A DNA stretch of 64,000 nt from Thermoplasmata archaeon (lineage in GTDB: Archaea; Thermoplasmatota; Thermoplasmata; GCA-020350865): positions 16,832 to 80,831 of the forward strand of contig CP070751.1 of assembly GCA_020348445.1 (NCBI GenBank), given 5' to 3'. The notes below the pieces were generated by a model. That model was given only the letters and a program-made list of their open reading frames with translations, did no database searches and was not told where the DNA came from. Shown here piece after piece: positions 687 through 17,313 of the stretch. Position 1 is the stretch's first letter, and every line of letters starts with the position of its first letter. The translations under genes and the position numbers were made by a program.

Positions 687-878
687 TTACTCTATCTCAT
701 CCCCTCTTGAACGAATATATACGTTCAGTTCATCCAAATATAATCCAGTTCTGATACACCATCTAACATATGTGGACATGTCCGTATTCAGCCTATCGGC
801 CTCTTTTTTTACATGCTCTAACAATTCTGGATCGATTCTCACCCTGATGGTCTTGGTATATTTTTCCTCAACCGTCAT
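687..878 (-). CDS. ribbon-helix-helix (CopG/Arc/MetJ-like) DNA-binding protein, paralog A
   Basis: 63 aa. N-terminal beta-strand then two helices (KTIRVRIDPELLEHVKKEADRLNTDMSTYVRWCIRTGL). Clear paralog of 1083-1268 and 5742-5933 (shared YTK..V/IR.DPELL..VK.....TD.S.Y/FVR.CIRTG.YL). Confidence 0.75.
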   Translation of the reverse strand: MTVEEKYTKTIRVRIDPELLEHVKKEADRLNTDMSTYVRWCIRTGLYLDELNVYIRSRGDEIE

Positions 879-1082: not shown

Positions 1083-1268
1083 CTACTCCTCGCTTTTTGA
1101 TTTTAGAAACTTGTTCACGTCCTTTAGGTACAATCCCGTTCTGATACACCATCTTACATAGGTGGACAAATCAGTGTCAAGCTTCTTGACTTCCTCTTTA
1201 ACCAGGGCAAGAAGCTCAGGGTCCACCCTCACCTTGAGGATTTTGGTGTACTTCCCCTCTTTCTCCAT
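1083..1268 (-). CDS. ribbon-helix-helix DNA-binding protein, paralog B
   Basis: 61 aa, MEKEGKYTKILKVRVDPELLALVKEEVKKLDTDLSTYVRWCIRTGLYL. Very close to 5742-5933. Own AT-rich promoter region in the 125-nt gap after the GTPase gene. Confidence 0.75.
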   Translation of the reverse strand: MEKEGKYTKILKVRVDPELLALVKEEVKKLDTDLSTYVRWCIRTGLYLKDVNKFLKSKSEE

Positions 1269-1393: not shown

Positions 1394-2266
1394 TCATTTG
1401 ATGTCATTGGCCAGCTCCCTTCTTCTTTCTAGATTGGAGAAAACTGTCTTTTCATCCATGAACTCGTTCTCTGCCTCTGCAAAATATTCCACAGCCTTGA
1501 GTATCCCTTCTTTTGTGGGTTTGTTTATATCGAGTCCGGCCCTGGCTATCTCCTGACGAAGGATCACCATGGCCATCCTGGAATCAGAAAATCCCTCGCA
1601 GAAATCAACGATTATTACATCAAGTGCGCCTATAGGGGTGGTTCGGTCAGAATTTCGGCGTATGCCTGTTGCCGTAAGGATTTCATAGACTTTTTTTACT
1701 GGATCTTCATACTTACCTTCAGCAAGAACAAGATGCCCAAGTGCTTCAAATGCCTCCTCAACATTAATTGCCTCCTTGGCACTTGTGGAATAATTTGTTT
1801 TCAATGTACCTCTGAGGATTGTATCAGCAGCGCTGTTGTACCTTTTGGCCATATCCTCCAATTCCTCGGGCTGGAACTCGAAGTCTTCTTTCAAATCCGA
1901 CTTGTTGCACACGAAGATCATGGGCACCTCCTCCACGACCTTGAACAAAAGGGGAATCCAGTATCGCTCCAGACTTTTTAGGGTCTCCTTTCTTGTCAGG
2001 TCTGCTACCAGAATGGCACCGTCTACTCCCACGAACGTCCTGGTTTGAACGGCACTGTACCCTTCCCTGCCGATGAGATCCCAGATCACGAATGTGAGGT
2101 TGTGGGTCTGATCAGGTCTTTGGATCAAAAGGTTCTTTTTAGTGATCTTGCAGCCGACTGTGGAGATGTAGGAGCTTTCGAACACATCGAAGACATATCT
2201 TCGAATGAGGCTTGTCTTGCCCACTGCACTGTCCCCTAAAAGGGCTATCTTCTTTTTCACTGTCAA
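1394..2266 (-). CDS. Ras/Rab-like small GTPase fused to a ~110-aa C-terminal domain of unknown family (paralog 1)
   Basis: All five G motifs are readable: G1 GDSAVGKT, G2 YISTVG, G3 WDLIGRE, G4 NKSD, G5 TSAK. TTG start preceded by AAAGGTGAACAA, the same initiation region as paralog 5952-6830. The C-terminal half (TTPIGALDVIIVDFCEGFSDSRMAMVILRQEIARAGL...) is conserved in the paralog. Confidence 0.85.
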   Translation of the reverse strand: MTVKKKIALLGDSAVGKTSLIRRYVFDVFESSYISTVGCKITKKNLLIQRPDQTHNLTFVIWDLIGREGYSAVQTRTFVGVDGAILVADLTRKETLKSLERYWIPLLFKVVEEVPMIFVCNKSDLKEDFEFQPEELEDMAKRYNSAADTILRGTLKTNYSTSAKEAINVEEAFEALGHLVLAEGKYEDPVKKVYEILTATGIRRNSDRTTPIGALDVIIVDFCEGFSDSRMAMVILRQEIARAGLDINKPTKEGILKAVEYFAEAENEFMDEKTVFSNLERRRELANDIK

Positions 2267-2435
2267 TTGTTCACCTTTCTTTGTACAATATTTTCGTATC
2301 CAATAAACTCTGGGCTATCGATTGGTGGCTAATGGCAATGAAAATACTTATGTTTATTTGTGATAAGACATAAGAAGGATTTAGCCATTCTTTTTCAATA
2401 TAAAAAATAGAAAATATTAAGGTACGGCGACTGTT

Positions 2436-4337
2436 CTATATGCCCAATTTTTTCCTGTTCGCCTCTATATGGGCCAAAATACCATCAGCAGCTTTGACTG
2501 GATCCTTCTCCACATTCATCACCCCGCCAGTCACCTGCTTGCAATCTTGAGTTAGGAGCTTCACAAGATCCGGTCCTCCAGTTACAGTGGGAACTGGATT
2601 CACATAAGTATAGAGTCCAAAAGCCAAAGCGAACACGGCATCTATTGTAGCCTTCTGCTCCATGTACTCAGGTGCACACGCTGCAACGGGTAAATCTGGA
2701 ATGGGCACATCTCCCAAGGCTTTGGAAACCGCCCCAACAAGATCAGCTAGTCGGCCTGTATCAGTGCACGTTCCGAAACTGAGAACTGGGGGAATCCCAA
2801 GTTTCTCACATAGGCCTTTAAGTCCCGATCCAGCCAGTTCCTTTGCTTGGGGGCTGCAAAGACCAGCAACCTGCACCCCACCGTTTCCGCAGCCCAAGGA
2901 AAGCACAAGGATGTCTCTTTTTATCAATTCCTTGACCATCCTTACAGTGTGAACATCCTGACCAGTGTCTCTTAGGGTTGTGCAGGAAACCATTCCCACC
3001 ACGCCTCTTATTACTCCATCCTTTATCGCCTCAAGCAAGGGATCCAGTTTTCCCCCCAGGGCCTCTAGTATACTTTCAGTGGAAAAACCCACAATCGCTT
3101 CTTTTACAGGCAATCCTGAGACAGGCTCATTTGATGACCTACGATCCTTGAAATTATCAATTGCCATCTCAAGAAGTCGGGAGGCTTGCGCAACTGCTCT
3201 ATCGGGAATATAATCCACTCGATCCTCTACTCCTTCAAAGGCAACAACTTCACTTATGGGAACAAGTTTGAACTTATATTTTTGGGCATATATTGGATCA
3301 ATGGGCATGGAGCAGTTCATATCACATGCAAAAAGATCAACACATCCGCTGGCCAAAACTGCTTCCTGCATTATCCAGTTTCCTGTGAATCCATAAAAGA
3401 CATCGTCCATCTCCCATCTTTGGATCATCTCCTGGCCAGTCTCGATATTAGCGATAATGCGTAATCCTTTGGCTCCAGCTTTTTTGGCTTTGTCCTGCCA
3501 CTCTGGAGTTCGAGCCAATTGAACCATTGCAAATCCAAGAAAAGGCTCGTGGCCGTTGGGAAGGACGTTCACATAATCCGGATCCAATACTCCAAGATCC
3601 ACACGCATATTATGAGGCCTTGGAATGCCGAATAAAATATCCTGGCAGAACTCGTTCACTATTTGACTTTGGTATGCCATTGCGATACCCAAACGCATGG
3701 CTTTAAGTGCGAGGGTTGCATAATAGCCATCCACGTTTGTTAGGCAGGAGCTTGTAGAGAACATTATCTCCCCGTGAATCCCACCTGGAAATATCCCCAA
3801 TTTTTTCCAGAGCTCCTTACGCTCATTGGGAGCCAGGGCTTCAACAATTTCACTTGGCTCATCATACTTTCTATTGAATTCTTTCTCCACGAAATCACAA
3901 AGGCGAAGGGCAATTTCTTTTTCAGAGCCAGAGGTATCCACACCAAGGCGTGCAGCAAAGGTTTTCAGCTTCTCAGGCTCCTTGATCTCAAAGGGTGTTT
4001 TATCGTTTGCAGTTGCGTAAAGGGTTTTTATTGTCTGGTCTGTATGATAATGATAGGTGGAGGCACCCATGACATTTCTGAGGAGCATCATGCGCATGGC
4101 CATTCCGTCTCCTGTGATGCCGCACACTCCCCTTTTGTCCTTTGATACGTCTGCACGGCACGGACCGTTTGAGCAGAGATCGCATCGAACACCGCCCATA
4201 CAAAAAGGACAGCGTTTGTCGGGATCACCAAAGCCCTGGGCCTCGAAGCGGTCCCAGATATTTGTCATGTTGTCCGATTTGATCTTCTCGTACATTTTAC
4301 GAACTGATTCATGATAAGAAATCCTATCGTCTTTCAT
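2436..4337 (-). CDS. cooS: anaerobic carbon-monoxide dehydrogenase catalytic subunit (CooS family)
   Basis: 633 aa. N-terminal Cys pattern CPFCMGGVRCDLCSNGPCRAD...GVCGITGDGMAMR and the overall length are typical of Ni-CODH CooS. No cooF/cooC/acs genes in the window. Confidence 0.85.
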   Translation of the reverse strand: MKDDRISYHESVRKMYEKIKSDNMTNIWDRFEAQGFGDPDKRCPFCMGGVRCDLCSNGPCRADVSKDKRGVCGITGDGMAMRMMLLRNVMGASTYHYHTDQTIKTLYATANDKTPFEIKEPEKLKTFAARLGVDTSGSEKEIALRLCDFVEKEFNRKYDEPSEIVEALAPNERKELWKKLGIFPGGIHGEIMFSTSSCLTNVDGYYATLALKAMRLGIAMAYQSQIVNEFCQDILFGIPRPHNMRVDLGVLDPDYVNVLPNGHEPFLGFAMVQLARTPEWQDKAKKAGAKGLRIIANIETGQEMIQRWEMDDVFYGFTGNWIMQEAVLASGCVDLFACDMNCSMPIDPIYAQKYKFKLVPISEVVAFEGVEDRVDYIPDRAVAQASRLLEMAIDNFKDRRSSNEPVSGLPVKEAIVGFSTESILEALGGKLDPLLEAIKDGVIRGVVGMVSCTTLRDTGQDVHTVRMVKELIKRDILVLSLGCGNGGVQVAGLCSPQAKELAGSGLKGLCEKLGIPPVLSFGTCTDTGRLADLVGAVSKALGDVPIPDLPVAACAPEYMEQKATIDAVFALAFGLYTYVNPVPTVTGGPDLVKLLTQDCKQVTGGVMNVEKDPVKAADGILAHIEANRKKLGI

Positions 4338-4403
4338 TTTCTAATCCCCCAATTGGTAATGCCCACAATGATTTGGATTATTTAAAACTAATGTGTAGAC
4401 TTT

Positions 4404-4448
4404 TTACTCCCAATCCAAAAGCCTCTTGCCATGAGTTTTGAAAATGGA
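4404..4448 (-). pseudogene. remnant of the 3' end of a PAS-domain (DUF438-type) gene, copy 1
   Basis: Minus-strand reading SIFKTHGKRLLDWE-stop. The 18-nt core TTACTCCCAATCCAAAAG is identical to 9831-9848 and to the true gene end at 10879-10896. No upstream ORF body. Confidence 0.6.
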
Positions 4449-4603
4449 TTGGGGGGATATTCACTGGATTGAGGGAGTACCGTGCAAGCTATGTTATTAA
4501 AAAAAAGAAAAAGATATGCGGCGAGGGTTTTGGAAATAGTCTATAATTCATGTGTAACTACTGCTGGATCCCACCGCGAGTCTTCTATTCTGAAGAACCT
4601 AAT

Positions 4604-5581
4604 CTATCTTTTCCAGTCAGGCCACCAACCTTTTGCGAGCTCCTCAGTCTGTTCAGTGCCGAAGTCGTATATATATACAGTCCATCCAGAAACACGTCCG
4701 CCTCCAGAGATACGTTTAGGCTTGGAAAATGCCTGTTGGGAATCATCGGGCGACCATGAGGGATAACGACTTTCTCCGCCGGAAACAAGCTGGGCTGTGG
4801 GGTTGCTCTGTGTCAAGTCCAGAGTGTATATAGCACTTCCATCAGATCCATCAAGAGCTGGCCATAACGTAAATGCCAGTTTATCTGGAGAACGAGACCA
4901 ATCTAGATCCTTAATACCTGCCTGTTCATAGTCATAGACTGTCACTGGGTCTTCTTCTGAATCAATTGTTAAGATATTGATATACGATTTACCGTCGATT
5001 GCTGTTGTCCAGTCAACAAATGCTATTTCTGTACCATCAGGGCTCCAGGCAATATCCACTAGATAATGCCCTTCATCTGCAGTATAAAGTGTATCAACTG
5101 AACCGTCGCTGAGAGAAATTGTCTGAATCAGCCTTGGGCGCTCACTACCCGTAGAAGGATCGTAGAGCTTTTGAATAAAGGCTATTTCACCACCCAAAGG
5201 TGACCATGCAATACTATATTGGATGTCTTGACACAGGAGTGTTGGTTCGCCTGCCTGCACTTCTCCTTCATTCACAGATATTTCAATAGTGTATAGATCA
5301 TGTGGAATGTTCTTGGTATATGCTATTGATGTTCCATCCGGTGCCCAGGTTGGACTGTATAGATTACCTGCTGAATCCACTTCGACCTGGTTAGTTCCGT
5401 CAGCATTCATCACCATGAGTGCATCATTTTTACCTACTTTAATAAACGCTATTGCCGGATCTGCTGGTGGTTCCTCATCAGGTGGTGGTTTTGGCGGTTT
5501 TTTTGCGGTAGCCATGGGTATGGCCATGCTCACAAGCAAGGACACTAATACTATGCCGATTAACAGCTTTCCTAGTTTCAT
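4604..5581 (-). CDS. secreted/lipid-anchored TolB-like beta-propeller protein (PD40/WD40-like repeats)
   Basis: N-terminal hydrophobic signal (MKLGKLLIGIVLVSLLVSMAIPMATA) followed by a Pro-rich linker. Repeated W(S/A)PDG..IAF motifs are typical of PD40 blades. Confidence 0.75.
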   Translation of the reverse strand: MKLGKLLIGIVLVSLLVSMAIPMATAKKPPKPPPDEEPPADPAIAFIKVGKNDALMVMNADGTNQVEVDSAGNLYSPTWAPDGTSIAYTKNIPHDLYTIEISVNEGEVQAGEPTLLCQDIQYSIAWSPLGGEIAFIQKLYDPSTGSERPRLIQTISLSDGSVDTLYTADEGHYLVDIAWSPDGTEIAFVDWTTAIDGKSYINILTIDSEEDPVTVYDYEQAGIKDLDWSRSPDKLAFTLWPALDGSDGSAIYTLDLTQSNPTAQLVSGGESRYPSWSPDDSQQAFSKPKRISGGGRVSGWTVYIYDFGTEQTEELAKGWWPDWKR

Positions 5582-5647
5582 ATTCTTTTCCTCCGATTAT
5601 CTTTCTAAATAGTCAAAAATCCTAAATCAGATTAATAAAGATAAAAT

Positions 5648-5669
5648 TTTGTCGGTACATGTACATACA
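5648..5669. promoter_or_regulatory. conserved palindromic motif, copy 3 (TTTGTCGGTACATGTACATACA)
   Basis: 16/22 identical to copy 1 and contains the perfect palindrome GTACATGTAC. Lies between RHH gene 5742-5933 and the start of the beta-propeller gene (5581). Confidence 0.4.
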
Positions 5670-5741: not shown

Positions 5742-5933
5742 TCAATATAGCTTTCCTTTCCTCGATCTTAACTCTACATTCATCTCCTTCAAATAAAATC
5801 CAGTGCGTATGCACCCTCTGATAAACGCGGATATATCGGTCCCTTGTACCTTTGCCTTCTTTTTCACTTCTTCAAGGAGTTCCGGTTCAATTCTTATGGT
5901 GAGAACTTTAGTGTACTTTCCTTCCTTTTCCAT
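5742..5933 (-). CDS. ribbon-helix-helix DNA-binding protein, paralog C
   Basis: 63 aa, MEKEGKYTKVLTIRIEPELLEEVKKKAKVQGTDISAFIRGCIRTGFYL. SD AAGGTGG upstream. Starts 18 nt after the GTPase stop. Confidence 0.75.
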   Translation of the reverse strand: MEKEGKYTKVLTIRIEPELLEEVKKKAKVQGTDISAFIRGCIRTGFYLKEMNVELRSRKGKLY

Positions 5934-5951: not shown

Positions 5952-6830
5952 TCAGTCTCCAACAATGCTTTCGGCCCACTCTCTTCTTCTTTTCATATTG
6001 GCTAAAACAATATCTCGATCTTTAAACTCACTCTCTGCTTCTGCTAAATACTCAACAGCTGTTAGAATCTTCTCTTTTGTGGGATTGTTAACATCGATTT
6101 TCGCTCTTGCAAGTTCCTGGCGCAGGATTAGCATTGCTATTCTCGAATCCTTGAAATCCTTGCAGAAATCCACCATTATAGCATCCAATGCACCAATGGG
6201 CGTTGTCTTATCCAAATTTCTCTGAATACCTGTTGCAAAGAGAGTTTCAAGGAGAATCTCAACAGTATTATCTGGTTTATACTCACTTAGCATAAAATTC
6301 CCCAAGCTCTCAAAGGCGCATTCGACATTGTTCCCATCTTTTGCACTGGTCGCATAGCAGGATTTTAATCCCTGAAATGTTGTTTTAAGGGATTGACCGC
6401 TGTATCTTCCCGCCAAATCCTCCATATCCTCGAATCCGAACTCGTATTTTCCTTTCAGATCGGATTTGTTACAAGTAAACACCAAGGGCACATTCTCTAC
6501 TATCTTGAACAAAAAAGGAATCCAATATTTCTCAAGGTTCTCCAGGGTCTCCTTTCTCGTAAGATCCGCCACAAGGATTGCACCTTCCACACCCACAAAG
6601 GTCCTGGCATGAAGGGCGTGATATCCCTCTCTACCGATAATGTCCCAGATCATAAATTTGACATCTACATTAGCGTTGGATCTATGAATGGAAAATTCCT
6701 TCATGGTTACCTTGCTTCCTATTGTGGAGGTATAGGAATCCTCGAACTGGTCGAAAACGAATCTTCGAATGAGGCTGGTTTTGCCTACGGCGCTGTCGCC
6801 GAGCAGGACGATTTTCTTTTTTATTGCCAA
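5952..6830 (-). CDS. Ras/Rab-like small GTPase fused to a ~110-aa C-terminal domain of unknown family (paralog 2)
   Basis: G1 GDSAVGKT, G2 YTSTIG, G3 WDIIGRE, G4 NKSD, G5 TSAK. TTG start after AAAGGTGAACAG. 39 nt downstream of the STAND ATPase gene. Confidence 0.85.
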   Translation of the reverse strand: MAIKKKIVLLGDSAVGKTSLIRRFVFDQFEDSYTSTIGSKVTMKEFSIHRSNANVDVKFMIWDIIGREGYHALHARTFVGVEGAILVADLTRKETLENLEKYWIPFLFKIVENVPLVFTCNKSDLKGKYEFGFEDMEDLAGRYSGQSLKTTFQGLKSCYATSAKDGNNVECAFESLGNFMLSEYKPDNTVEILLETLFATGIQRNLDKTTPIGALDAIMVDFCKDFKDSRIAMLILRQELARAKIDVNNPTKEKILTAVEYLAEAESEFKDRDIVLANMKRRREWAESIVGD

Positions 6831-6869
6831 CTGTTCACCTTTCCGTTTGTGATTTTGTAGATTCCACCT

Positions 6870-9683
6870 CTACAAATCCTTGAGCGCTGCTCTCACCTTC
6901 TCTTTTTTCTTTTCCAACTTCAATTCCTTGTAAATATCGATTGCCTTGTTTAGTTGTTCTTTCGCTTTATTAGGATCTCCCTTAGCCTTCCACATCAATC
7001 CAAATTCGAAGTGGGATTCTGCCAATTCCCTTTTTATTCCAATTCCCTTAAAAATCTTTACGCTCTCTTCAAAATTCTCAATGGATTCCTTCCATTTTCC
7101 CTGGTTTGTAAATATAATTCCTAAAATTCTTCTCGAGCTTGCTAGGGTCACTTTTGAACCAATCTCTTTAGATAGTTCAAATGATCGTTTGCAGAAATCA
7201 AATGCTCTTGTCAGATCCTTTTTTCTAAGATAGGCTTCCGCTATAAACCAATAGTTGTAAGCCATCAGTATCCGGTAGCCGATCTTTATAACTATTTTCA
7301 TGCTCTTTTCGAATTGATCAAGGGCTTTGTCATATTCTCCTTTATAAAAGTGTGCAACACCAATGTTGTGTAAAATTACAGCAATCCTCTTTTGGTCACC
7401 CATCCTCTCATGTATTTCTTTGGTCCTATCATAGTATTCAAGGGCTTTGTCATACTCTTCTATTTCAACATGAACAATACCAATGTTCATCATGTGAATG
7501 GCAGTAAATTGCATATCACCGATTTGCTCCGAAATGCCTAGACTTTTTTTGTAGTATTCGAGAGCTTCATTATATTTTCCAATCCACATATGAATTATGC
7601 CGATATTGTTGAGGGACCCTGCGATTCCTTTTTTATCTTCTATTATTTCCCTTATCTTAAGGCTCTTATCGTAATATCCAAGCGCCATTTCTATTTCTCC
7701 TCTTTCTTGGTGCACAGTGCCAATTAGATTTAGGGCATCCGCTTTTTCCCTGCATTCCTCATCTCTAACCAAGAATAGTGCTTCATTACAAATTTTTATT
7801 GATTCATTATATCCTCCCATATGCCTATGACAGTTCCCAATCCCAATCTTAATCTCAGCTTTTTTCTTATTATCAATGCTCAATTCCAATGCACGCTCGT
7901 AAGCCTTGATACTATTCTGATAATCCCCAATCAAGGAATAAATACCTGCCATTTCTTCGAGTGTTTTCCTCCTCTTTTTCGGATTATCCTCAAGTCCAAG
8001 AGCATAGGAATAGAATCTTATTGATTCTTCATTTGAATAATCCTTCTTTGCCTTCTCCGCCGCTTTAAGGAGATAGTGAAGTGCTTTGTCCTTATTCTTG
8101 CATTGATAATAATGAAATGCTAAATCTTCAACCACTTCATCCAGATTATCTTGGCTCAGTGTCTCAACCGAGTTTGCGATTATCGAGTGATAATCCCTTC
8201 TCAATTCTTCTGGTATTTCGCTGTAAAGCACCTCTTTTACTTTGGCATGGTCGAACTTGAAATATCCATTATGGGATTTGAGTAATCTATGAACTTGCTC
8301 TAAACTTCTCAACTGCTCTAAAAGTTGAGTTCTGTTCGTATCCAGGGCATAGGTTAGGATCGATGATGTGAACGTTTCTCCGATGATAGAAGCATAATCC
8401 AATACCTTCCTGTCTTCTTTTTCCAATCTGTTCAATCTTCTTTCAATCACGTTGTATATTTTGGATGGGATTTCGATATCTTTTAGATCTTTGGCTAACT
8501 TCCATGTTCCCTCATCTTCCAAAATGATCTTTTCATCGACTAGGAATTTTATTAAAAGGATAAAGAACAATGGATTCCCTTCGGTCTCCTTGTAGATTCG
8601 ATTCTTAAATTCATCAGTGAAATCGATTTTTCCAAGCAGGACAGACAAAAATTCGTCCATAATCTCTTCGGGTAATCTCGCAAGCTCCATCTTTTTCAAC
8701 AGATCCTCGCGGTCCATCAACTGCATGGTTCCCACAAGAGGATGACTCTTTTCATCCATTGAAGCAACATCCTCAGGTCTATAAGTGCCCATAATAAATA
8801 GCCCAGTCTCTCTCGTGTTTCTAGCGAGGTAGTGCATTAGAGCTAAGGATGATAGGTCTGTCCATTGTAAGTCTTCTATGCATAAAAGAGTGGGCATTTG
8901 CTGTGCCTGCCTTATCAATCCCAAAGAGACATTCTCGAATAATAAATTCCTTCTAATCTTTGGATCATCTTTACCATAATAGATACCGTCATACTTTCCG
9001 GATGTGATAAGAGGTTTGAGGAGCTCGTCGATTCCAGCAACCTTTTTTTCGTCACCACCCCATTTCTCAAGGATTCGTTTAAAAGTTTTTGTTATCTTTA
9101 ATAGGATCTCTCTCATATCGTTTAGCAGGAATTCATTTTCTCTTCCTGTTAGTATAACCACAAGATTGGTATCCTTATAATTATCGATTAATATACGATA
9201 ATTCTGGTATCCTAACGAATTCAAAGTTCCTTTTTCTTCCTCTCCAGACAGCTTTGAAAGAGATTCATTAAGAAAGTCAGTTATAGTGGTAAACATTGAT
9301 GCAAAAACATCAGGATTAAGTTCTGTTTCTTCTCTCACAAGATTTCTTATTAATATGCCCGCATTGGTTACCAGATAAACAGCTTCCACTCGTGGGGCTT
9401 CCTCTGCAAAAAGCGATTCCAGGCCTACAGATCTCAGGGCTTCCATAATGGGCATGAAGGGAGTAAGGGATTCATACATGCAGTTACCTGACAAGATCTG
9501 GAAGCCTTTGGATTGAGCAATCTCTTTCAGCTCGTTTACCAAACGGGTCTTTCCGATTCCTGCCTCCCCTGAGATGAATATTGTCCTTCCTTGCCCTTCC
9601 ATGGCTCTTTCTAGATAAGACTGCAGTTCTCTGAGTTCATCCTCGCGACCAACCATCTTGGGTTGGAGATCTAGATTCTGCAT
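6870..9683 (-). CDS. STAND-type (AAA_16/COG3899-like) ATPase with Roadblock/LC7-like insertion and C-terminal TPR array
   Basis: Likely start is ATG 9683 (MQNLDLQPKMVGREDEL...). The 45 codons upstream in the ORF track run through an AT-rich promoter. Walker A GEAGIGKT, Walker B-like LLCIEDLQWTD, and more than 10 TPR-like repeats (G.Y.EAL.YY.K.L.I). See the separate insertion feature. Confidence 0.8.
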   Translation of the reverse strand: MQNLDLQPKMVGREDELRELQSYLERAMEGQGRTIFISGEAGIGKTRLVNELKEIAQSKGFQILSGNCMYESLTPFMPIMEALRSVGLESLFAEEAPRVEAVYLVTNAGILIRNLVREETELNPDVFASMFTTITDFLNESLSKLSGEEEKGTLNSLGYQNYRILIDNYKDTNLVVILTGRENEFLLNDMREILLKITKTFKRILEKWGGDEKKVAGIDELLKPLITSGKYDGIYYGKDDPKIRRNLLFENVSLGLIRQAQQMPTLLCIEDLQWTDLSSLALMHYLARNTRETGLFIMGTYRPEDVASMDEKSHPLVGTMQLMDREDLLKKMELARLPEEIMDEFLSVLLGKIDFTDEFKNRIYKETEGNPLFFILLIKFLVDEKIILEDEGTWKLAKDLKDIEIPSKIYNVIERRLNRLEKEDRKVLDYASIIGETFTSSILTYALDTNRTQLLEQLRSLEQVHRLLKSHNGYFKFDHAKVKEVLYSEIPEELRRDYHSIIANSVETLSQDNLDEVVEDLAFHYYQCKNKDKALHYLLKAAEKAKKDYSNEESIRFYSYALGLEDNPKKRRKTLEEMAGIYSLIGDYQNSIKAYERALELSIDNKKKAEIKIGIGNCHRHMGGYNESIKICNEALFLVRDEECREKADALNLIGTVHQERGEIEMALGYYDKSLKIREIIEDKKGIAGSLNNIGIIHMWIGKYNEALEYYKKSLGISEQIGDMQFTAIHMMNIGIVHVEIEEYDKALEYYDRTKEIHERMGDQKRIAVILHNIGVAHFYKGEYDKALDQFEKSMKIVIKIGYRILMAYNYWFIAEAYLRKKDLTRAFDFCKRSFELSKEIGSKVTLASSRRILGIIFTNQGKWKESIENFEESVKIFKGIGIKRELAESHFEFGLMWKAKGDPNKAKEQLNKAIDIYKELKLEKKKEKVRAALKDL
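9084..9395 (-). other. Roadblock/LC7 (MglB-like) domain-like insertion inside the NTPase domain
   Basis: About 100 aa between Walker A and Walker B: VEAVYLVTNAGILIRNLVREETELNPDVFASMFTTITDFLNESLSKL...LNSLGYQNYRILIDNYKDTNLVVILTGRENEFLLNDMREIL. By eye this follows the beta-beta-alpha-beta-beta(-alpha) pattern of Robl_LC7. No profile search was run. Confidence 0.55.
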
Positions 9684-9830
9684 CTTCCCCCCACAATGAT
9701 TTATTATCCCCGGGCTATTTATATACAAAACGTTTTTAAAATATATAAGGTTATATGTAAATTTGTGAGATTTTAAAAAATATGAGAGGAATTTAGCAAT
9801 GTTTCTAAAATATTGCATTTTTATAACTTT

Positions 9831-9981: not shown

Positions 9982-10485
9982 TTAACTTTTAGCAATTCTT
10001 TCCATAATAGTTTTATAGAGAACCACTGTCATTCTAAAGTCACTCTCAGCAAGCTTGGCAATTACCTCCTTGGCCTTCTTTTTATCGATTTTTTTCATCT
10101 CGACCGCAGCTACAATCAAACCCAAAAGCCCGGTATAATCTCTATTCTCAACATCCGCAACCCTTCTTGCATTTAGCTCGTCTATAATCAGCCTCGCCTT
10201 TTTTTCAGTGAAAAATAAAGTCGCCTCGCCTTCGCCTAAACCATATTTTGTAAACTGTTTCACATTCCCCTTCACTCTAACTGATATTATCCAATCTCCC
10301 ATTGCTTGCATGATCTTGTCAGTTTCTGGATAGTTATGGCCAAGAAGCTCTTTCTCGATGGATTTTGTAATATATATTTTACCCAACAATTTTTTTAAAA
10401 GGTCAAGCTCTCCAATCCTGGATAACGCGATTATGGTGGATGAGTCCACAAAAGTTCTCATACTGACACTCAGCTTTTGAGCCAT
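9982..10485 (-). CDS. PIN-domain toxin (DUF3368-like)
   Basis: The N-terminus VDSSTIIALSRIGELDLLKKLLGKIYITKSIEKEL matches the typical DUF3368/PIN start. Overlaps the upstream antitoxin gene by 16 nt. An alternative start is ATG 10461. Confidence 0.7.
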   Translation of the reverse strand: MAQKLSVSMRTFVDSSTIIALSRIGELDLLKKLLGKIYITKSIEKELLGHNYPETDKIMQAMGDWIISVRVKGNVKQFTKYGLGEGEATLFFTEKKARLIIDELNARRVADVENRDYTGLLGLIVAAVEMKKIDKKKAKEVIAKLAESDFRMTVVLYKTIMERIAKS

Positions 10486-10790
10486 TTCTTGGCTTTCCTT
10501 GTGTCCTTCTCAAGTTCGCTTTCCGAGTATTTGAAGAATGGTATCTCTCTTTTCCCCAGATAGTCAGCCATTTCTTGGATGCTTACATCCGCAAACTCCG
10601 CTGCCCTACATAATGTAAATTCATTGCTCAGGTATTTCTTTTGAGCGATTTCCAGTTTTAAAACCTTAATACCTTCATGAAGTGCATTTCTTGCCACTTC
10701 TGATTTGGTCATATGGAGAATCTCGATTAACTCCTCCATTTCCGATATTTCATCATCGGGTAATCGTATCTGCAAGTTTTCCATATTCAA
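10470..10790 (-). CDS. UPF0175-family antitoxin-like protein
   Basis: 106 aa with an HTH-like segment CRAAEFADVSIQEMADYLGKREIPF, characteristic of UPF0175 partners of DUF3368 PIN proteins. N-terminal RHH-like strand IRLPDDEISEMEELI. Confidence 0.65.
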   Translation of the reverse strand: MNMENLQIRLPDDEISEMEELIEILHMTKSEVARNALHEGIKVLKLEIAQKKYLSNEFTLCRAAEFADVSIQEMADYLGKREIPFFKYSESELEKDTRKAKKWLKS

Positions 10791-10878: not shown

Positions 10879-12681
10879 TTACTCCCAATCCAAAAGTCTG
10901 TTTTCACCCTCAAGTTTTTTGATGTCAGTTACATCCTGCGAGACTTCAAGGGTGCCCTTGTAAATACCCTCAGAATCCCTCACAGCAAAATATCTAATAT
11001 GTATGAACTTACCATCCAACTGCAGCCAGAACTCGGCAACGTCCTTGTAACCTGCCTTGAATTGATTTAGTATTTTTTGGACGGTATCCACGCTCTTTGA
11101 GGGATGGCATTTCTGAACCTTCCTTCTGATCACTGCGGGACTTCTTGGGAAGATCCTCTCCTTGGTTGCAGAATAATACGCAACCCTATCAGTCTCATCA
11201 ACAAAAGAAATATCCACTGGGAGATGAGTCAGTATCAAATCGATCTGCTCCTTGGATAGAGCGCCTGTAGCCAGAGGTATCTTCTGCTCTTTAACAGGTA
11301 TTTCCAGTATTTGCACCTCTTTTGGCATTTCAAAATCCTCAGGTGGCCATTTCTCCTCAGGTTCAACCCAGGCATAACCTATCTCCTCTTCACCAGATCG
11401 CACCTTTGTCCACTCTGATTGGGATAGTTGTTCAAGACTCATGGGAAACAGTATGTGCTCCTCCTTGTAGATCATCTCCCGGGTTGTTGGGATCAATTCC
11501 TTTAACGTCTTCACAAGTGCGGTGGGTTCCTCCTGGGATAACAGCTCACTTGCCTTTTTTAGCAATGTCCTTACATCATCATGTATTCCCCACATGACCT
11601 GTGAAGGTCCTGAGACATCATGGGACTCAAGCATCGGAAACAGCTGGTTCTCCTTTCTCAGATAATGATAGTCGATCTTGGCAAAGCTTTCAAGTAATCT
11701 CCCCAGTCCTCCACGACAGTCCAAAAATACAGTCTCATTTGGAGGATCCCCCAGCCTTTTCAGCATCTCCTCGATTTCATCCATGATCTTTTCAGCTTCC
11801 CTGTTCTCCTTCATGAATGTGTGAACAGGGTGACCTGGGGGTGCAGTTGGAATCTCTTTTTTATCAAGCGATTCCTTGAAAATCTCAACATGAACATCAC
11901 AAAGTCTCTTTACTTCTTCCTCGGGAATACCCTCATCAATCAATTGTTGCTCCATCTTTGATATCTCGGAGGGATCGACATCCTTTATGAGCTCTCTGAA
12001 TTTATTCTTCAGAACATTCATGTCCTCCCCTTCATGAACCCCCCTTATGATTTCCTTTAGAACCTCCTGCCTTTTATCAGATTCTACTAACTGTTCTTTG
12101 GGTTCCTCAAAAGGTTCTTTAGGTTCTTCAAAAGGCTCTTTAGGTTCCTCAATAGGTTCCCTAGGTTCCTCAAAAGGTTCCTTGGGCTCCTCAATATGTT
12201 CTTTGGATTCCTCAATAGGTTCCTTGGGCTCCTCAAAAGGTTCTTCAAAAGGTTCTTTGGGCTCTTCAAAAGGTTCTTTGGGTTCCTCAAAAGGTTCTTT
12301 AGGTTCTTCAAAAGGTTCTTTGGGTTCCTCACCAGGCTCCTTGGGCTCCTCAAAAGGTTCCTTGGGTTCTTCAAAAGGTTCCCTAGGTTCTTCAAAAGGT
12401 TCCTTGGGCTCTTCAACAGTTTCTTTGGAAAATTCAACCTTAATAACAAGCTCTTCGTTTGTCTTCTCCAAAACCTCCCGTGCGATCTCATTCATAAGCA
12501 GGTTAAGTTCGATTTTACCCATGGATGCTACTTTTTCCAATGTGGCAACCTTGGCCATGGTCTTACGTAAGATACGGCTCTTCAATTGTCGTAAGTCAGG
12601 CGAAAGTTCGGCTAAAAAATCCACCAGAAAAGGATATCTGCTCAATAGAACATCAAGTTTGGTATTAGCGTCAATTTTCAT
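10879..12681 (-). CDS. DUF1858 / DUF438 / hemerythrin-like / PAS domain protein with internal acidic Pro-rich repeat
   Basis: N-terminus MKIDANTKLDVLLSRYPFLVDFL (DUF1858-like). Middle region has His/Glu-rich hemerythrin-like helices (HPVHTFMKENREAEKIM, DYHYLRKENQLFP). C-terminal PAS domain (FVDETDRVAYYS...IRYFAVRD). 108-aa EEPKEPF repeat. Confidence 0.8.
   Translation of the reverse strand: MKIDANTKLDVLLSRYPFLVDFLAELSPDLRQLKSRILRKTMAKVATLEKVASMGKIELNLLMNEIAREVLEKTNEELVIKVEFSKETVEEPKEPFEEPREPFEEPKEPFEEPKEPGEEPKEPFEEPKEPFEEPKEPFEEPKEPFEEPFEEPKEPIEESKEHIEEPKEPFEEPREPIEEPKEPFEEPKEPFEEPKEQLVESDKRQEVLKEIIRGVHEGEDMNVLKNKFRELIKDVDPSEISKMEQQLIDEGIPEEEVKRLCDVHVEIFKESLDKKEIPTAPPGHPVHTFMKENREAEKIMDEIEEMLKRLGDPPNETVFLDCRGGLGRLLESFAKIDYHYLRKENQLFPMLESHDVSGPSQVMWGIHDDVRTLLKKASELLSQEEPTALVKTLKELIPTTREMIYKEEHILFPMSLEQLSQSEWTKVRSGEEEIGYAWVEPEEKWPPEDFEMPKEVQILEIPVKEQKIPLATGALSKEQIDLILTHLPVDISFVDETDRVAYYSATKERIFPRSPAVIRRKVQKCHPSKSVDTVQKILNQFKAGYKDVAEFWLQLDGKFIHIRYFAVRDSEGIYKGTLEVSQDVTDIKKLEGENRLLDWE
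12091..12414. repeat. 21-nt (7-codon) tandem repeat encoding about 15 copies of EEPKEPF
   Basis: Directly visible in the DNA and the protein. It generates three spurious repeat-frame ORFs in the track. Confidence 0.95.
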
Positions 12682-16101: not shown

Positions 16102-17313
16102 TCAATCACCCCTTCCATAAGGATTTCCAAAGGTCCTTACATTCTCAGCAATAGTCATGTGCTTTTTAGGGGCGAGGTTTTCCGCAACTGCATTGTTACG
16201 GATGTTTAAAAGAAAATCAGGCAGGGGAATTCCCAGGGGACATGCGATCTCGCAGTTTCCGCATAAGGAGCAGTTGTACAGTCCCTCTGAAACTGATTGC
16301 TCAACACCTGAAGTGAAATTCAGAAGCACAAGTTCCCTTGGGGTTCGATACTCCCCCTCCTTCATAAAAAGGGATCTGGGACAGACTGAGCCGCAGGCTC
16401 GGCAGTTGATGCACTGTAGGAACTCCGAGAACTCACCAGCCACAAGATCCGATCTTCCATTGTCCAAAATGATCACGTGGAGGTTGTTTTCCAAAGTGCC
16501 TGTTGTTTTAGAGAACTTTTTTGGGAGTTCATCAACATGAACCTTCTGAAACTCAGTGTCGTAGGAAAGTATCCCAAGAAGCAGGCTCGGAAGACCGAAC
16601 ATCCCGGACGCCCGAGAAATGTATTTGGCCTGTTCAGAATCATTTACTATCTTTTCCAGGCTCACTACCAAAATCGTCTCTTTGGACTGCGATATCAGAC
16701 TTGAGATGTTGTTGAAGTGCTGGACAAAGAAGAAGCTTCCGTCCTTTGAGGATACAGAATTTGCACCGATGAGAGAGGCAAACTCAAGTGGTTTTTTGTA
16801 CTTGATTTTAAAAATGTCAAAGGATTTCCAGATATGATCCTCAGATATTTTAGGAATTTCCCATAAATCAAGATGCTTGGCATCTTCGATCTCTTTCTGG
16901 CTTGCATGGTACGTATCAAATACTGTAATGTCCTTGGGAAGGTCCCCTATGATCTCCTTTACAACTGAAGAATTGTTGATGCAAACATTCTTTAGATCGG
17001 CTTTTGTCAGCACCTTTTGAATATAAGAAGCTGCATCTGAAGAGGTCTTGGCATTGTAGGTGTCGATTCCTTTTCCCTGCAAAAAAAATGTGAGATTTTT
17101 TACATTTGATTCGAGATTTTTTAGGCTCGTCTCTCTTATAGATTTTAACTGCTTCTTGATTTCTTCAATATCTATTTCCTGATAATCCTTGTCATCCAAC
17201 TTCCTTAGCTTGGAATAAATGAAGTGCTCTCTTATAAGATTGGCAGAAGGCTCTAAAACGTGGATGGGTATTCTTGTTTTCTGTGACTGTGAGTCTGATT
17301 TGCTTTTATTCAA
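16102..17313 (-). CDS. LUD-domain / 2x[4Fe-4S] protein (LutB-like)
   Basis: CINCRACGSVCP and CSLCGNCEIACP motifs after a LUD (DUF162)-like region. TTG start with SD GGAGGT 8 nt upstream. Confidence 0.65.
   Translation of the reverse strand: MNKSKSDSQSQKTRIPIHVLEPSANLIREHFIYSKLRKLDDKDYQEIDIEEIKKQLKSIRETSLKNLESNVKNLTFFLQGKGIDTYNAKTSSDAASYIQKVLTKADLKNVCINNSSVVKEIIGDLPKDITVFDTYHASQKEIEDAKHLDLWEIPKISEDHIWKSFDIFKIKYKKPLEFASLIGANSVSSKDGSFFFVQHFNNISSLISQSKETILVVSLEKIVNDSEQAKYISRASGMFGLPSLLLGILSYDTEFQKVHVDELPKKFSKTTGTLENNLHVIILDNGRSDLVAGEFSEFLQCINCRACGSVCPRSLFMKEGEYRTPRELVLLNFTSGVEQSVSEGLYNCSLCGNCEIACPLGIPLPDFLLNIRNNAVAENLAPKKHMTIAENVRTFGNPYGRGD

Follow-up and report, generated by a model that had tools for sequence, protein, structure and literature searches.

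The 64,000-nucleotide window analysed here (positions 16,832 to 80,831 of contig CP070751.1, from a Thermoplasmata archaeon) encodes two paralogous Rab-like GTPases, GTPase 1 and GTPase 2, in which an arginine (R67) stands at the position equivalent to the catalytic Gln61 of Ras and the G domain is followed by a C-terminal domain (C-domain) without family or fold match. GTPase 1 lies between the gene of a STAND ATPase and that of a ribbon-helix-helix (RHH) protein, an order that recurs elsewhere in the genome and in relatives. The joint reading proposed for these observations, which by analogy with known systems has in our estimation about an even chance of being right, is that GTPase 1 would be a GTP switch that uses R67, a Roadblock-like partner or both, cycles without a glutamine in cis and forms the middle of a relay from STAND to GTPase to RHH protein.

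Two Rab-like GTPases with an arginine in switch II

The two open reading frames (ORFs) are not chance, since 4188 database proteins match the GTPase 1 protein at E <= 0.001, the best 120 of them at 60-100% identity over 85-100% of the query. The source names of these 120 are 'GTP-binding protein' from Thermoplasmata or Methanomassiliicoccales metagenome-assembled genomes (MAGs), with one Hodarchaeales record. The two window proteins are 62% identical to each other (179/290, E 3e-132). Both genes start with TTG, preceded by AAAGGTGAACAG in GTPase 1 and AAAGGTGAACAA in GTPase 2, with a GGTGA ribosome-binding box at the usual distance ahead of both codons, and these starts are credible because four other Arg-type paralogs of the genome begin with ATG (MAIKKK...) at the homologous codon. 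The original prediction, made from the letters of the window, had described two paralogous ORFs with TTG starts, a shared initiation region and the G3 motif WD(I/L)IGRE, and is correct in every one of these elements.

The G domain is Rab-like by every measure used. Pfam Ras (PF00071) matches residues 6-177 at E 1.4e-29 in GTPase 1 and 2.4e-29 in GTPase 2, with a score of 103 bits against a cut-off of 21.6; Pfam Roc (PF08477) matches the same residues at E 1.8e-25 and 5.5e-23, covering model positions 1-119 of 119 at 89.9 bits (cut-off 27), and is outscored by Ras. NCBIfam gives only the generic small_GTP domain for both proteins. The top PDB sequence matches (HMMER) are Thorarchaeota Rab (E 5.9e-22), Rab11, Rab5 and Ypt7, and the top structural matches (Foldseek and VIA) are Rab1b, Rab43, Rab3, Rab5 and Rab8, at Z about 21. 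On the full-length AlphaFold2 (AF2) model of GTPase 1, which has a predicted local distance difference test score (pLDDT) of 79.2, a second look with VIA aligned Rab/Ras chains at Z about 21 to residues 1-185 only. The C-terminal ends (...WAESIVGD and ...LANDIK) carry no prenylated Cys motif, the proteins having a folded helical domain there instead.

The motifs G1 (GDSAVGKT), G2 (T36), G3 (D63-x-x-G66), G4 (NKSD) and G5 (SAK) are intact, and they are invariant in a 26-sequence alignment of the family. Judged by motifs G1 to G5 both proteins belong to the Ras superfamily, of which they lack the catalytic Gln, and both are expected to bind GTP because all nucleotide-binding motifs are intact. 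The G3 motif of GTPase 1 reads W62-D63-I64-I65-G66-R67-E68. In HMMER alignments R67 lies opposite the residue following DxxG in Thorarchaeota Rab (7ezb), Plasmodium Rab11 (3bfk) and human Rab5A (7bl1), and the same column of the 26-sequence alignment holds Gln in paralogs. The register is secure because the invariant Asp and Gly of DxxG fix the alignment, and the predicted placement of Arg at the Gln61-equivalent position is borne out by both the Rab structures and the paralogs.

Origin of the arginine within a large paralog family

A search of the genome, which is a single contig of 5,156,303 bp, with the GTPase 1 protein and with matches read in six frames gave 35 matches, of which 18 are long paralogs with both G domain and C-domain, 16 are short ones of about 180-215 aa with the G domain alone, and one is a C-domain fragment interrupted by TAG. 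The residue after DxxG is Arg in six, Gln in ten and Leu in two of the long paralogs, and Gln in 13 of the short ones, the remaining three carrying Asp, Lys and Ser. Gln is thus the usual state of the family. Among the best 120 database homologs position 67 is Arg in 118 and Lys in two.

The phylogeny of 78 rows (IQ-TREE; 74 long forms from this genome, relatives and databases and four short paralogs, with column 67 kept in) places all 31 Arg/Lys rows on one side of a branch with ultrafast bootstrap (UFBoot) 99 and Shimodaira-Hasegawa-like approximate likelihood ratio test (SH-aLRT) 86, nested among the Gln-type long paralogs. On this tree Gln is ancestral and Arg derived, with a single origin, and it marks one well-supported subclade, in which a 274-row FastTree phylogeny also places a few Ser and Lys variants. 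The claim that Arg is a property of the family therefore holds for both window paralogs and fails for the family at large, which mostly bears Gln. The C-domain is also present in Gln-type paralogs and so did not arise together with the Arg. The proteins belong to a Thermoplasmata-centred branch of Rab/Rup-like small GTPases.

Long paralogs also occur in tandem arrays, one of six genes (C1:3131528-3137291), of which two members have Leu at the Gln61 position, and one of three (C1:3703376-3706222). Each array adjoins a giant gene (5180 aa and 3614 aa, respectively) with a Roadblock-like C-terminal cytoplasmic tail. The TAG-interrupted fragment (C1:5078893-5079150) is a C-domain-only remnant, with the stop in frame, nearly identical to the tail of the paralog at 5073501-5074409; it lies just upstream of a tandem pair of STAND genes and is probably a pseudogene from a segmental duplication.

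An accessory domain private to the family

The C-domain is conserved between both window paralogs and across the family. Residues ~183-292 of both proteins gave no Pfam or NCBIfam match at E <= 0.01, and an exhaustive HMMER search with residues 186-292 against 1.84 billion representative proteins gave 64 clusters at E <= 0.001, 13 of them at E <= 1e-10; the 19 clusters inspected all proved to be C-terminal portions of family GTPases of ~270-300 aa or fragments of such genes. A C-domain profile matches 24 of 41 genomes (15/28 genera) among the nearest relatives in the class. In an even sample of the phylum it matches 12 of 201 genomes (12/112 genera), most of them 2.8-5.5 Mb in size.

AF2 on a 28-row alignment predicts five helices with a mean pLDDT of 86.4. 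With this model Foldseek found no PDB match at E <= 0.001 (best E 0.72), and exhaustive VIA-align found none at Z >= 8, its best match (Z 7.7) being to unrelated helical proteins and at background level for helical bundles. The ESM Atlas gave no usable match by features. The C-domain is a real domain, private to this GTPase family and without a fold match, in agreement with the prediction that the last ~110 aa belong to no family, which the Pfam, NCBIfam and PDB searches uphold.

The helix bearing the LRQE motif contains R237, nearly invariant in family GTPases (26-sequence alignment), and position 239, which is Glu in 31/31 Arg/Lys rows (...L-R237-Q-E239...) and Gln in 86% of the 43 other long forms (...L-R-x-Q...). 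In the 274-row set all 183 Arg/Lys rows have Glu239 and 62 of 75 Gln rows have Gln239. The 67/239 pairings there are Arg/Glu in 181 rows, Lys/Glu in 2, Gln/Gln in 62, Gln/Glu in 8, Ala/Glu in 5, Ser/Glu and Leu/Gln in 3 each, and Leu/Glu and Glu/Glu in 1 each; Arg/Gln occurs in none, and other rare pairings account for 8 rows. Glu239 thus seems, in these alignments, to mark a lineage where position 67 became free to change. The pairing was rejected as evidence of co-evolution of positions 67 and 239, Glu239 occurring with several residues and the phylogenetically independent contrasts numbering only two or three, and co-evolution is kept as a hypothesis; a contact between R67 and E239 is possible, and the pairing is a lead only.

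The C-domain is also encoded by free-standing genes of 106 aa (C1:684635-684955) and 113 aa (C1:4117783-4118124), whose products lack R237 and keep Gln239. The 113-aa gene immediately precedes a gene for a giant protein with a Roadblock-like tail, and a short GTPase comes next.

Genomic context of the Arg-type GTPases

The STAND gene ends 39 nt ahead of the start of GTPase 1, which in turn ends 18 nt ahead of the RHH gene (Table 1). The STAND product has the AAA_16 P-loop domain (E 1.9e-24) followed by the TPR sensor array (TPR_12 E 1.1e-59; TPR_MalT E 8.8e-9, below its cut-off) by which STAND NTPases are recognised, and on these matches it is one; Pfam found no DNA-binding domain in it. The RHH protein is also matched by the CopG_antitoxin model, at E 1e-4.

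Both flanking families are concentrated at Arg-type loci. An RHH hidden Markov model (HMM) built from three RHH proteins found five copies when run against the 55,710 six-frame ORFs of the genome; four of these immediately follow an Arg-type GTPase, and the fifth adjoins a run of N. Close STAND paralogs (>= 54% identity, full length) number three, all at Arg-type loci, namely the window copy and a tandem pair (C1:5079417-5085042) whose second member stops 1 nt ahead of a further Arg-type GTPase, behind which an RHH gene lies once more. The order STAND-GTPase-RHH therefore occurs twice in this genome, and it is also found in the relative G001 (locus L021) and on the MAG contig JAGLRN010000075.1 (L017; Table 1). 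STAND orthologs lie upstream of Arg-type GTPases at L017, L021 and L029, and in the relative G003 (L022) the GTPase is accompanied by two RHH genes, with no STAND gene within the 1.5-kb flank. Five of 80 metagenome loci carry an Arg-type GTPase; all five have a STAND or RHH gene next door, and in three of them (L063, L064 and L069) a STAND gene lies upstream.

The Pfam AAA_16 match of the STAND protein is split, model positions 2-~68 falling on residues 55-~145 and positions 69-165 on residues ~210-342 (fragment tested), the halves being separated by an inserted domain of ~135 aa. When 137 aligned sequences of the insert family were compared by hhalign with the six Robl_LC7 proteins of the genome, the probability was 80.3% (E 1.3e-5) over 103 columns spanning the whole Roadblock domain, against 0.1-0.3% in three control comparisons; an initial comparison with 19 insert sequences had given 59% over 43 columns. 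Pfam Robl_LC7 (PF03259) weakly matches three of 13 insert members (best E 0.0044) and Fuz_longin_1 matches one of 13. Three homologous STAND fragments are named 'predicted regulator of Ras-like GTPase activity (Roadblock/LC7/MglB family)' by JGI, which names four others OmpA-family porins, and the ESM Atlas model of the STAND protein shows look-alikes of the insert in bacterial OmpA-family proteins and others (template modelling (TM) score 0.78-0.85 by query). An NCBIfam search with the insert gave nothing relevant. Taken on profile similarity, the insert is probably a divergent Roadblock/LC7-like domain.

The insert family comprises 21 domains in 19 ORFs of the genome. It also forms the C-terminus of giant proteins of 1644-5180 aa, where it is read as a cytoplasmic tail after a single membrane pass, given its place immediately behind a hydrophobic stretch and a basic cluster. 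For seven of the 19 ORFs a GTPase paralog is found no more than 526 bp away, compared with a mean of 1.1 and a maximum of 6 in 2000 trials of random placement; the seven include the giant genes adjoining the six-gene array (3.13 Mb) and the three-gene array (3.70 Mb), and, at 4.12 Mb, the giant gene flanked by a free C-domain gene and a short GTPase. The insert profile matches 32 of the 41 relatives' genomes, and among the matches listed it lies, by eye, within about 5 kb of a C-domain match at no fewer than 12 places (at least 12) in 11 of them. In the metagenome loci, counting GTPases with at least 300 bp of upstream sequence and an insert-family ORF ending within 1.5 kb upstream on the same strand, such an ORF precedes 22 of 45 long Gln-type GTPases (13/30 clusters at 85% identity) and 3 of 27 short Gln-type ones (3/21 clusters). 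The insert family is, on this gene proximity, probably a conserved genomic partner of the GTPase family, most strongly of its long forms.

Two relatives of family f17 (G024 and G035, 2.1-2.3 Mb) have 19-21 insert domains, mostly in STAND-sized ORFs of about 970-1070 aa, and only 4-5 C-domain GTPases, which suggests a separate expansion of the STAND-insert architecture.

Table 1 Features of the window, and of the cassette on a second contig
Feature	Position	Strand	Basis
GTPase 1, Arg-type, Rab-like, 292 aa, G domain and C-domain, TTG start	5952..6830	minus	ORF list, Pfam Ras
Codon AGA, Arg67, Gln61-equivalent residue of switch II	6630..6632	minus	sequence, alignments
C-domain of GTPase 1, family-specific, residues 183-292, five helices, R237 and E239 in LRQE helix	5955..6284	minus	searches, AF2
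Spacer between STAND stop and GTPase 1 TTG, 39 nt, with GGTGA Shine-Dalgarno-like box (AAAGGTGAACAG)	6831..6869	minus	sequence
STAND ATPase, AAA_16 and TPR array, real start probably Met46 at 9683	6870..9818	minus	Pfam; ESM Atlas record starts at residue 46
Probable Roadblock/LC7-like domain, ~135 aa (residues ~140-280), between AAA_16 halves	8979..9401	minus	split Pfam match, hhalign
RHH (CopG-like) protein, 63 aa, 18 nt downstream of GTPase 1	5742..5933	minus	Pfam RHH_1 E 2.1e-5
GTPase 2, Arg-type paralog, 290 aa, TTG start after AAAGGTGAACAA	1394..2266	minus	ORF list, Pfam
RHH paralog, 61 aa, downstream of GTPase 2	1083..1268	minus	RHH HMM
Second RHH paralog, 63 aa, further downstream of GTPase 2	687..878	minus	Pfam, RHH HMM
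Prismane/CO-dehydrogenase-family gene, between both GTPase loci	2436-4337	minus	Pfam Prismane E 1.7e-143
STAND gene, L017 (JAGLRN010000075.1)	1870-4524		
GTPase gene, L017 (JAGLRN010000075.1)	4559-5419		
RHH gene, L017 (JAGLRN010000075.1)	5476-5667		

The surroundings of the cassette contain several further genes. Downstream of the RHH gene lies a gene for a secreted PD40/beta-propeller protein with a signal-peptide-like N-terminus (4604-5581, minus strand); a gene for a secreted protein also comes after the second cassette, at 5.086 Mb, and might be a target of regulation. Immediately upstream of the STAND gene (9982-10790, minus strand), a 167-aa protein and an overlapping 106-aa protein, toxin-antitoxin-like in look, match the PADLOC candidate defence system PDC-S70 (E 3.7e-25 and 1.2e-3). 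Beyond them (10879-12681, minus strand) is encoded a 600-aa protein with about 20 tandem EEPKEPF-like acidic/proline repeats between its N-terminal region and a conserved C-terminal part.

Proposed mechanism and alternatives

Every step of the mechanism set out here is what we infer. GTPase 1 would still cycle, without the Ras-type cis-glutamine, and this could come about in two ways, both of which could hold: R67 itself might reach the gamma-phosphate, the role proposed for R1398 of LRRK2, or the Roadblock/LC7-like domain of the STAND protein encoded upstream might control hydrolysis and exchange. MglB and the Ragulator/longin platforms dock small GTPases and act as GTPase-activating proteins or guanine nucleotide exchange factors. 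Because of this Roadblock biology it is proposed that the STAND protein would hold the GTPase on its inserted Roadblock-like domain, its ATP- and ligand-dependent state setting the nucleotide state of the GTPase. By analogy with LRRK2, R67 would then read the gamma-phosphate and pass the state to the domain behind switch II, here the C-domain with Glu239, through which the GTPase could act on an output. The most economical candidate for that output is the RHH DNA-binding protein encoded 18 nt downstream, and this step from GTPase to RHH protein is the weakest link of the relay. The conserved cassette of STAND (with Roadblock insert), GTPase and RHH protein suggests that an ATP switch is wired directly to a GTP switch. 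The original prediction is upheld in part, in the position of the Arg and the conserved and unmatched C-domain, and two concrete candidate partners exist, the Roadblock-like insert upstream and the RHH protein downstream; a need for a partner in hydrolysis and signalling through the extra domain are possibilities.

Several observations count against this relay. GTPase 2 has no STAND neighbour, its upstream gene being of the prismane/CO-dehydrogenase family, and three of the six Arg-type paralogs of the genome (5009757, 5073501 and 5074536) adjoin neither a STAND nor an RHH gene. In two of the metagenome loci (L065 and L074) the RHH gene lies immediately upstream of the Arg-type GTPase and not downstream, and the RHH protein may only autoregulate its operon. 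The Roadblock assignment itself comes from a profile comparison at 80% probability against six templates and from weak Pfam matches, and a profile search of the PDB with the insert returned only designed proteins and chance matches. As to the residues, the Arg is strongly but not absolutely kept in its clade, judging from the Lys and Ser forms nested there. Glu239 also accompanies Gln, Ala, Ser, Leu and Glu at position 67, and therefore predates the Arg or is independent of it, and the link between the two positions lacks statistical support because the independent contrasts are so few.

The absence of the catalytic Gln also allows the Arg-type proteins to be hydrolysis-dead pseudo-GTPases, permanently GTP-bound or nucleotide-insensitive scaffolds that are regulated by expression or exchange only. 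This agrees with the range of residues at position 67, where Lys and Ser are tolerated in the clade and neighbouring Glu239 lineages have Ala, Ser or Leu, as if selection no longer acted on catalysis, and with the presence in other paralogs of the genome of Leu, the classic GTP-locked substitution. It is nevertheless unlikely, as Arg in 118 of the best 120 homologs and in 181 of 274 family rows is more than a merely permissive position would give, the binding motifs show no variation, even at the G2 Thr, a Roadblock-like domain that is a candidate regulator is conserved in the adjacent gene, and the same substitution is reported, in the accessible text of a preprint, to support hydrolysis in LRRK2 (PMC13345514). 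A further possibility is activation by dimerisation, as in Roco/GAD-like GTPases, with the C-domain as a COR-like module and R67 or R237 completing the active site of the partner. The full-length match to Pfam Roc (1-119 of 119, E 1.8e-25), a helical domain directly after the G domain as COR-A follows Roc, the shared Arg of LRRK2 and the near invariance of R237 would all suit such a protein; it is nonetheless very improbable, given a C-domain of only ~110 aa without a COR match in Pfam at E <= 0.01, the lack of any Roco chain among the structural matches listed (a weak test) and standalone C-domain proteins that have no R237.

The neighbourhood could also be read as an anti-virus or conflict system of the Avs/STAND type, with the GTPase as effector or adaptor and the RHH protein as an antitoxin-like repressor. 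Defence systems commonly contain STAND NTPases with TPR sensors, RHH domains are typical of antitoxins (hence the bearing of the CopG_antitoxin match, E 1e-4), a PIN/RHH pair matching PDC-S70 lies directly upstream (9982-10790), and the cassette is duplicated and patchy in its distribution. PADLOC, however, has no model match for the GTPase or the RHH protein and only generic TPR/P-loop matches for the STAND protein, and Pfam detects no nuclease, protease or other killing domain in the three cassette proteins. At other loci of the genome this GTPase family and the Roadblock-like domain are linked with giant surface proteins, which favours signalling over immunity and leaves a defence role with little probability.

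The signalling relay might extend beyond this locus. It is conceivable, though doubtful, that large-genome Thermoplasmatota run a previously undescribed form of signalling in which Roadblock-like domains, carried by the tails of giant surface proteins or the cores of STAND-TPR proteins, dock Rab-like C-domain GTPases; the Arg branch would then be a convergent, LRRK2-like variant in which R67 reads the gamma-phosphate, pairs with Glu239 and so links an ATP switch, through a GTP switch, to an RHH transcription factor.

Comparison with known systems

Three features appear to be undescribed: the C-domain itself, so large a paralog family in an archaeon that is not an Asgard, and the recurrent coupling of these GTPases with a Roadblock-like domain, whether in STAND ATPases or on giant surface proteins. 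In open-access text, supplements excluded, no published description was found of this GTPase family, its C-domain, the Arg variant or the STAND-Roadblock fusion, nor of a wiring of ATP switch to GTP switch of this kind; Kaur et al. 2020 (PMC7159879), in its accessible part, has no bearing on this GTPase system. The setting is more interesting than the single residue, the Arg being a variant, specific to one clade, of a kind of atypical small GTPase that is already known.

Thorarchaeota Rab (7ezb/7ezd/7eze) is the best PDB sequence match and is among the top structural matches, and it shares with the window proteins the absence of prenylation cysteines. Archaeal Rab-like proteins, as far as the accessible accounts of them go, keep the catalytic Gln and have no extension beyond the G domain, whereas the window proteins have Arg and a folded C-domain of 110 aa. 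Single divergent Rab-like genes, also without extension, are reported from a Thermoplasmatales archaeon and Aciduliprofundum in the accessible text of Surkont and Pereira-Leal 2016 (PMC4915359). Discussion of large Rab-like repertoires has centred on Asgard archaea; with 34 Rab-like paralogs and a dedicated accessory domain in a Thermoplasmata genome, such repertoires are therefore no Asgard monopoly.

The MglA-MglB systems of Myxococcus and Thermus likewise combine a Ras-like GTPase with a Roadblock/LC7 regulator encoded next door, and the hhalign comparison aligned the STAND insert with Robl_LC7 proteins encoded in this genome. The G3 motif of MglA is TVPGQ/GTPGQ, without Asp (accessible text of PMC4316618), whereas the window motif WDIIGRE keeps the Asp of DxxG. 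The Roadblock-like domain differs from MglB in residing in an AAA_16 core or the tail of a giant membrane protein and not in a free dimeric protein, and no free Robl_LC7 gene adjoins the window GTPase genes. Going by G3, the window proteins are not MglA. The genome also encodes a classic MglA/MglB-like pair (C1:3660178-3661154), in which the short GTPase has Asp in place of Gln61 (WDIIGDI) and the gene immediately after it encodes a 134-aa Robl_LC7 protein.

Group 1 Rup proteins are described, in the accessible text of Wuichet and Sogaard-Andersen 2014 (PMC4316618), as prokaryotic, Ras-like GTPases with eukaryote-like G motifs, no G3 Gln and conserved signalling neighbourhoods, in which one neighbour has an unknown domain followed by a transmembrane helix and OmpA. 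The window proteins share the Ras-like G motifs, the absent G3 Gln and the conserved signalling neighbourhood (PMC4316618), and the STAND insert has look-alikes (TM 0.81-0.83) and sequence homologs in OmpA-family proteins, a likeness to the Rup neighbour drawn by description only. Group 1 is bacterial and the study left out proteins of more than 240 aa, whereas the window proteins have 290-292 aa; its accessible text describes no C-domain, STAND partner, RHH protein or Arg at the Gln position (PMC4316618). By this comparison of described features the window proteins fit the broad 'Rup' concept.

The G3 letters of LRRK2, DFAGRE, have the same Arg followed by Glu. The Roc domain of LRRK2 thus resembles the window G domain in the Arg directly after the DxxG glycine, as well as in the helical domain that directly follows and in the Pfam Roc match over the full model length. 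The window proteins differ from LRRK2 in having no COR, LRR, kinase or WD40 domain by Pfam and in matching Rab/Ras structures and Pfam Ras better than Roc. Tested as Roco proteins, they match the Roc G domain and have no COR match in Pfam at E <= 0.01, and the structural matches that Foldseek and VIA-align list for the C-domain and full-length models include no Roco chain, a result compatible with a distant likeness to COR-A; on these matches they are not a demonstrable Roco. In LRRK2, R1398 occupies the Q61-equivalent position at the ROC-COR interface and is proposed to be a gamma-phosphate sensor that aids hydrolysis (PMC13345514, accessible text), and a hydrogen bond from R1398 to a residue numbered S1671 is reported in the accessible text of PMC4781896. 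This precedent, the only one found for Arg at this position, is the opposite of a simple loss of catalysis, the Arg itself being proposed to aid hydrolysis (PMC13345514). Among 20 Roco proteins Arg at that position is reported for LRRK2 alone in the accessible text of the same 2026 preprint (PMC13345514), and the archaeal Arg, which by the phylogeny arose independently in a Gln-type family, would for that reason be a second, convergent case. It offers a natural second example of the substitution that makes LRRK2 Roc mechanistically puzzling. For the question of what a switch II arginine does, an archaeal protein that is small, soluble and single-chain and has Gln-type sister paralogs could be a tractable model.

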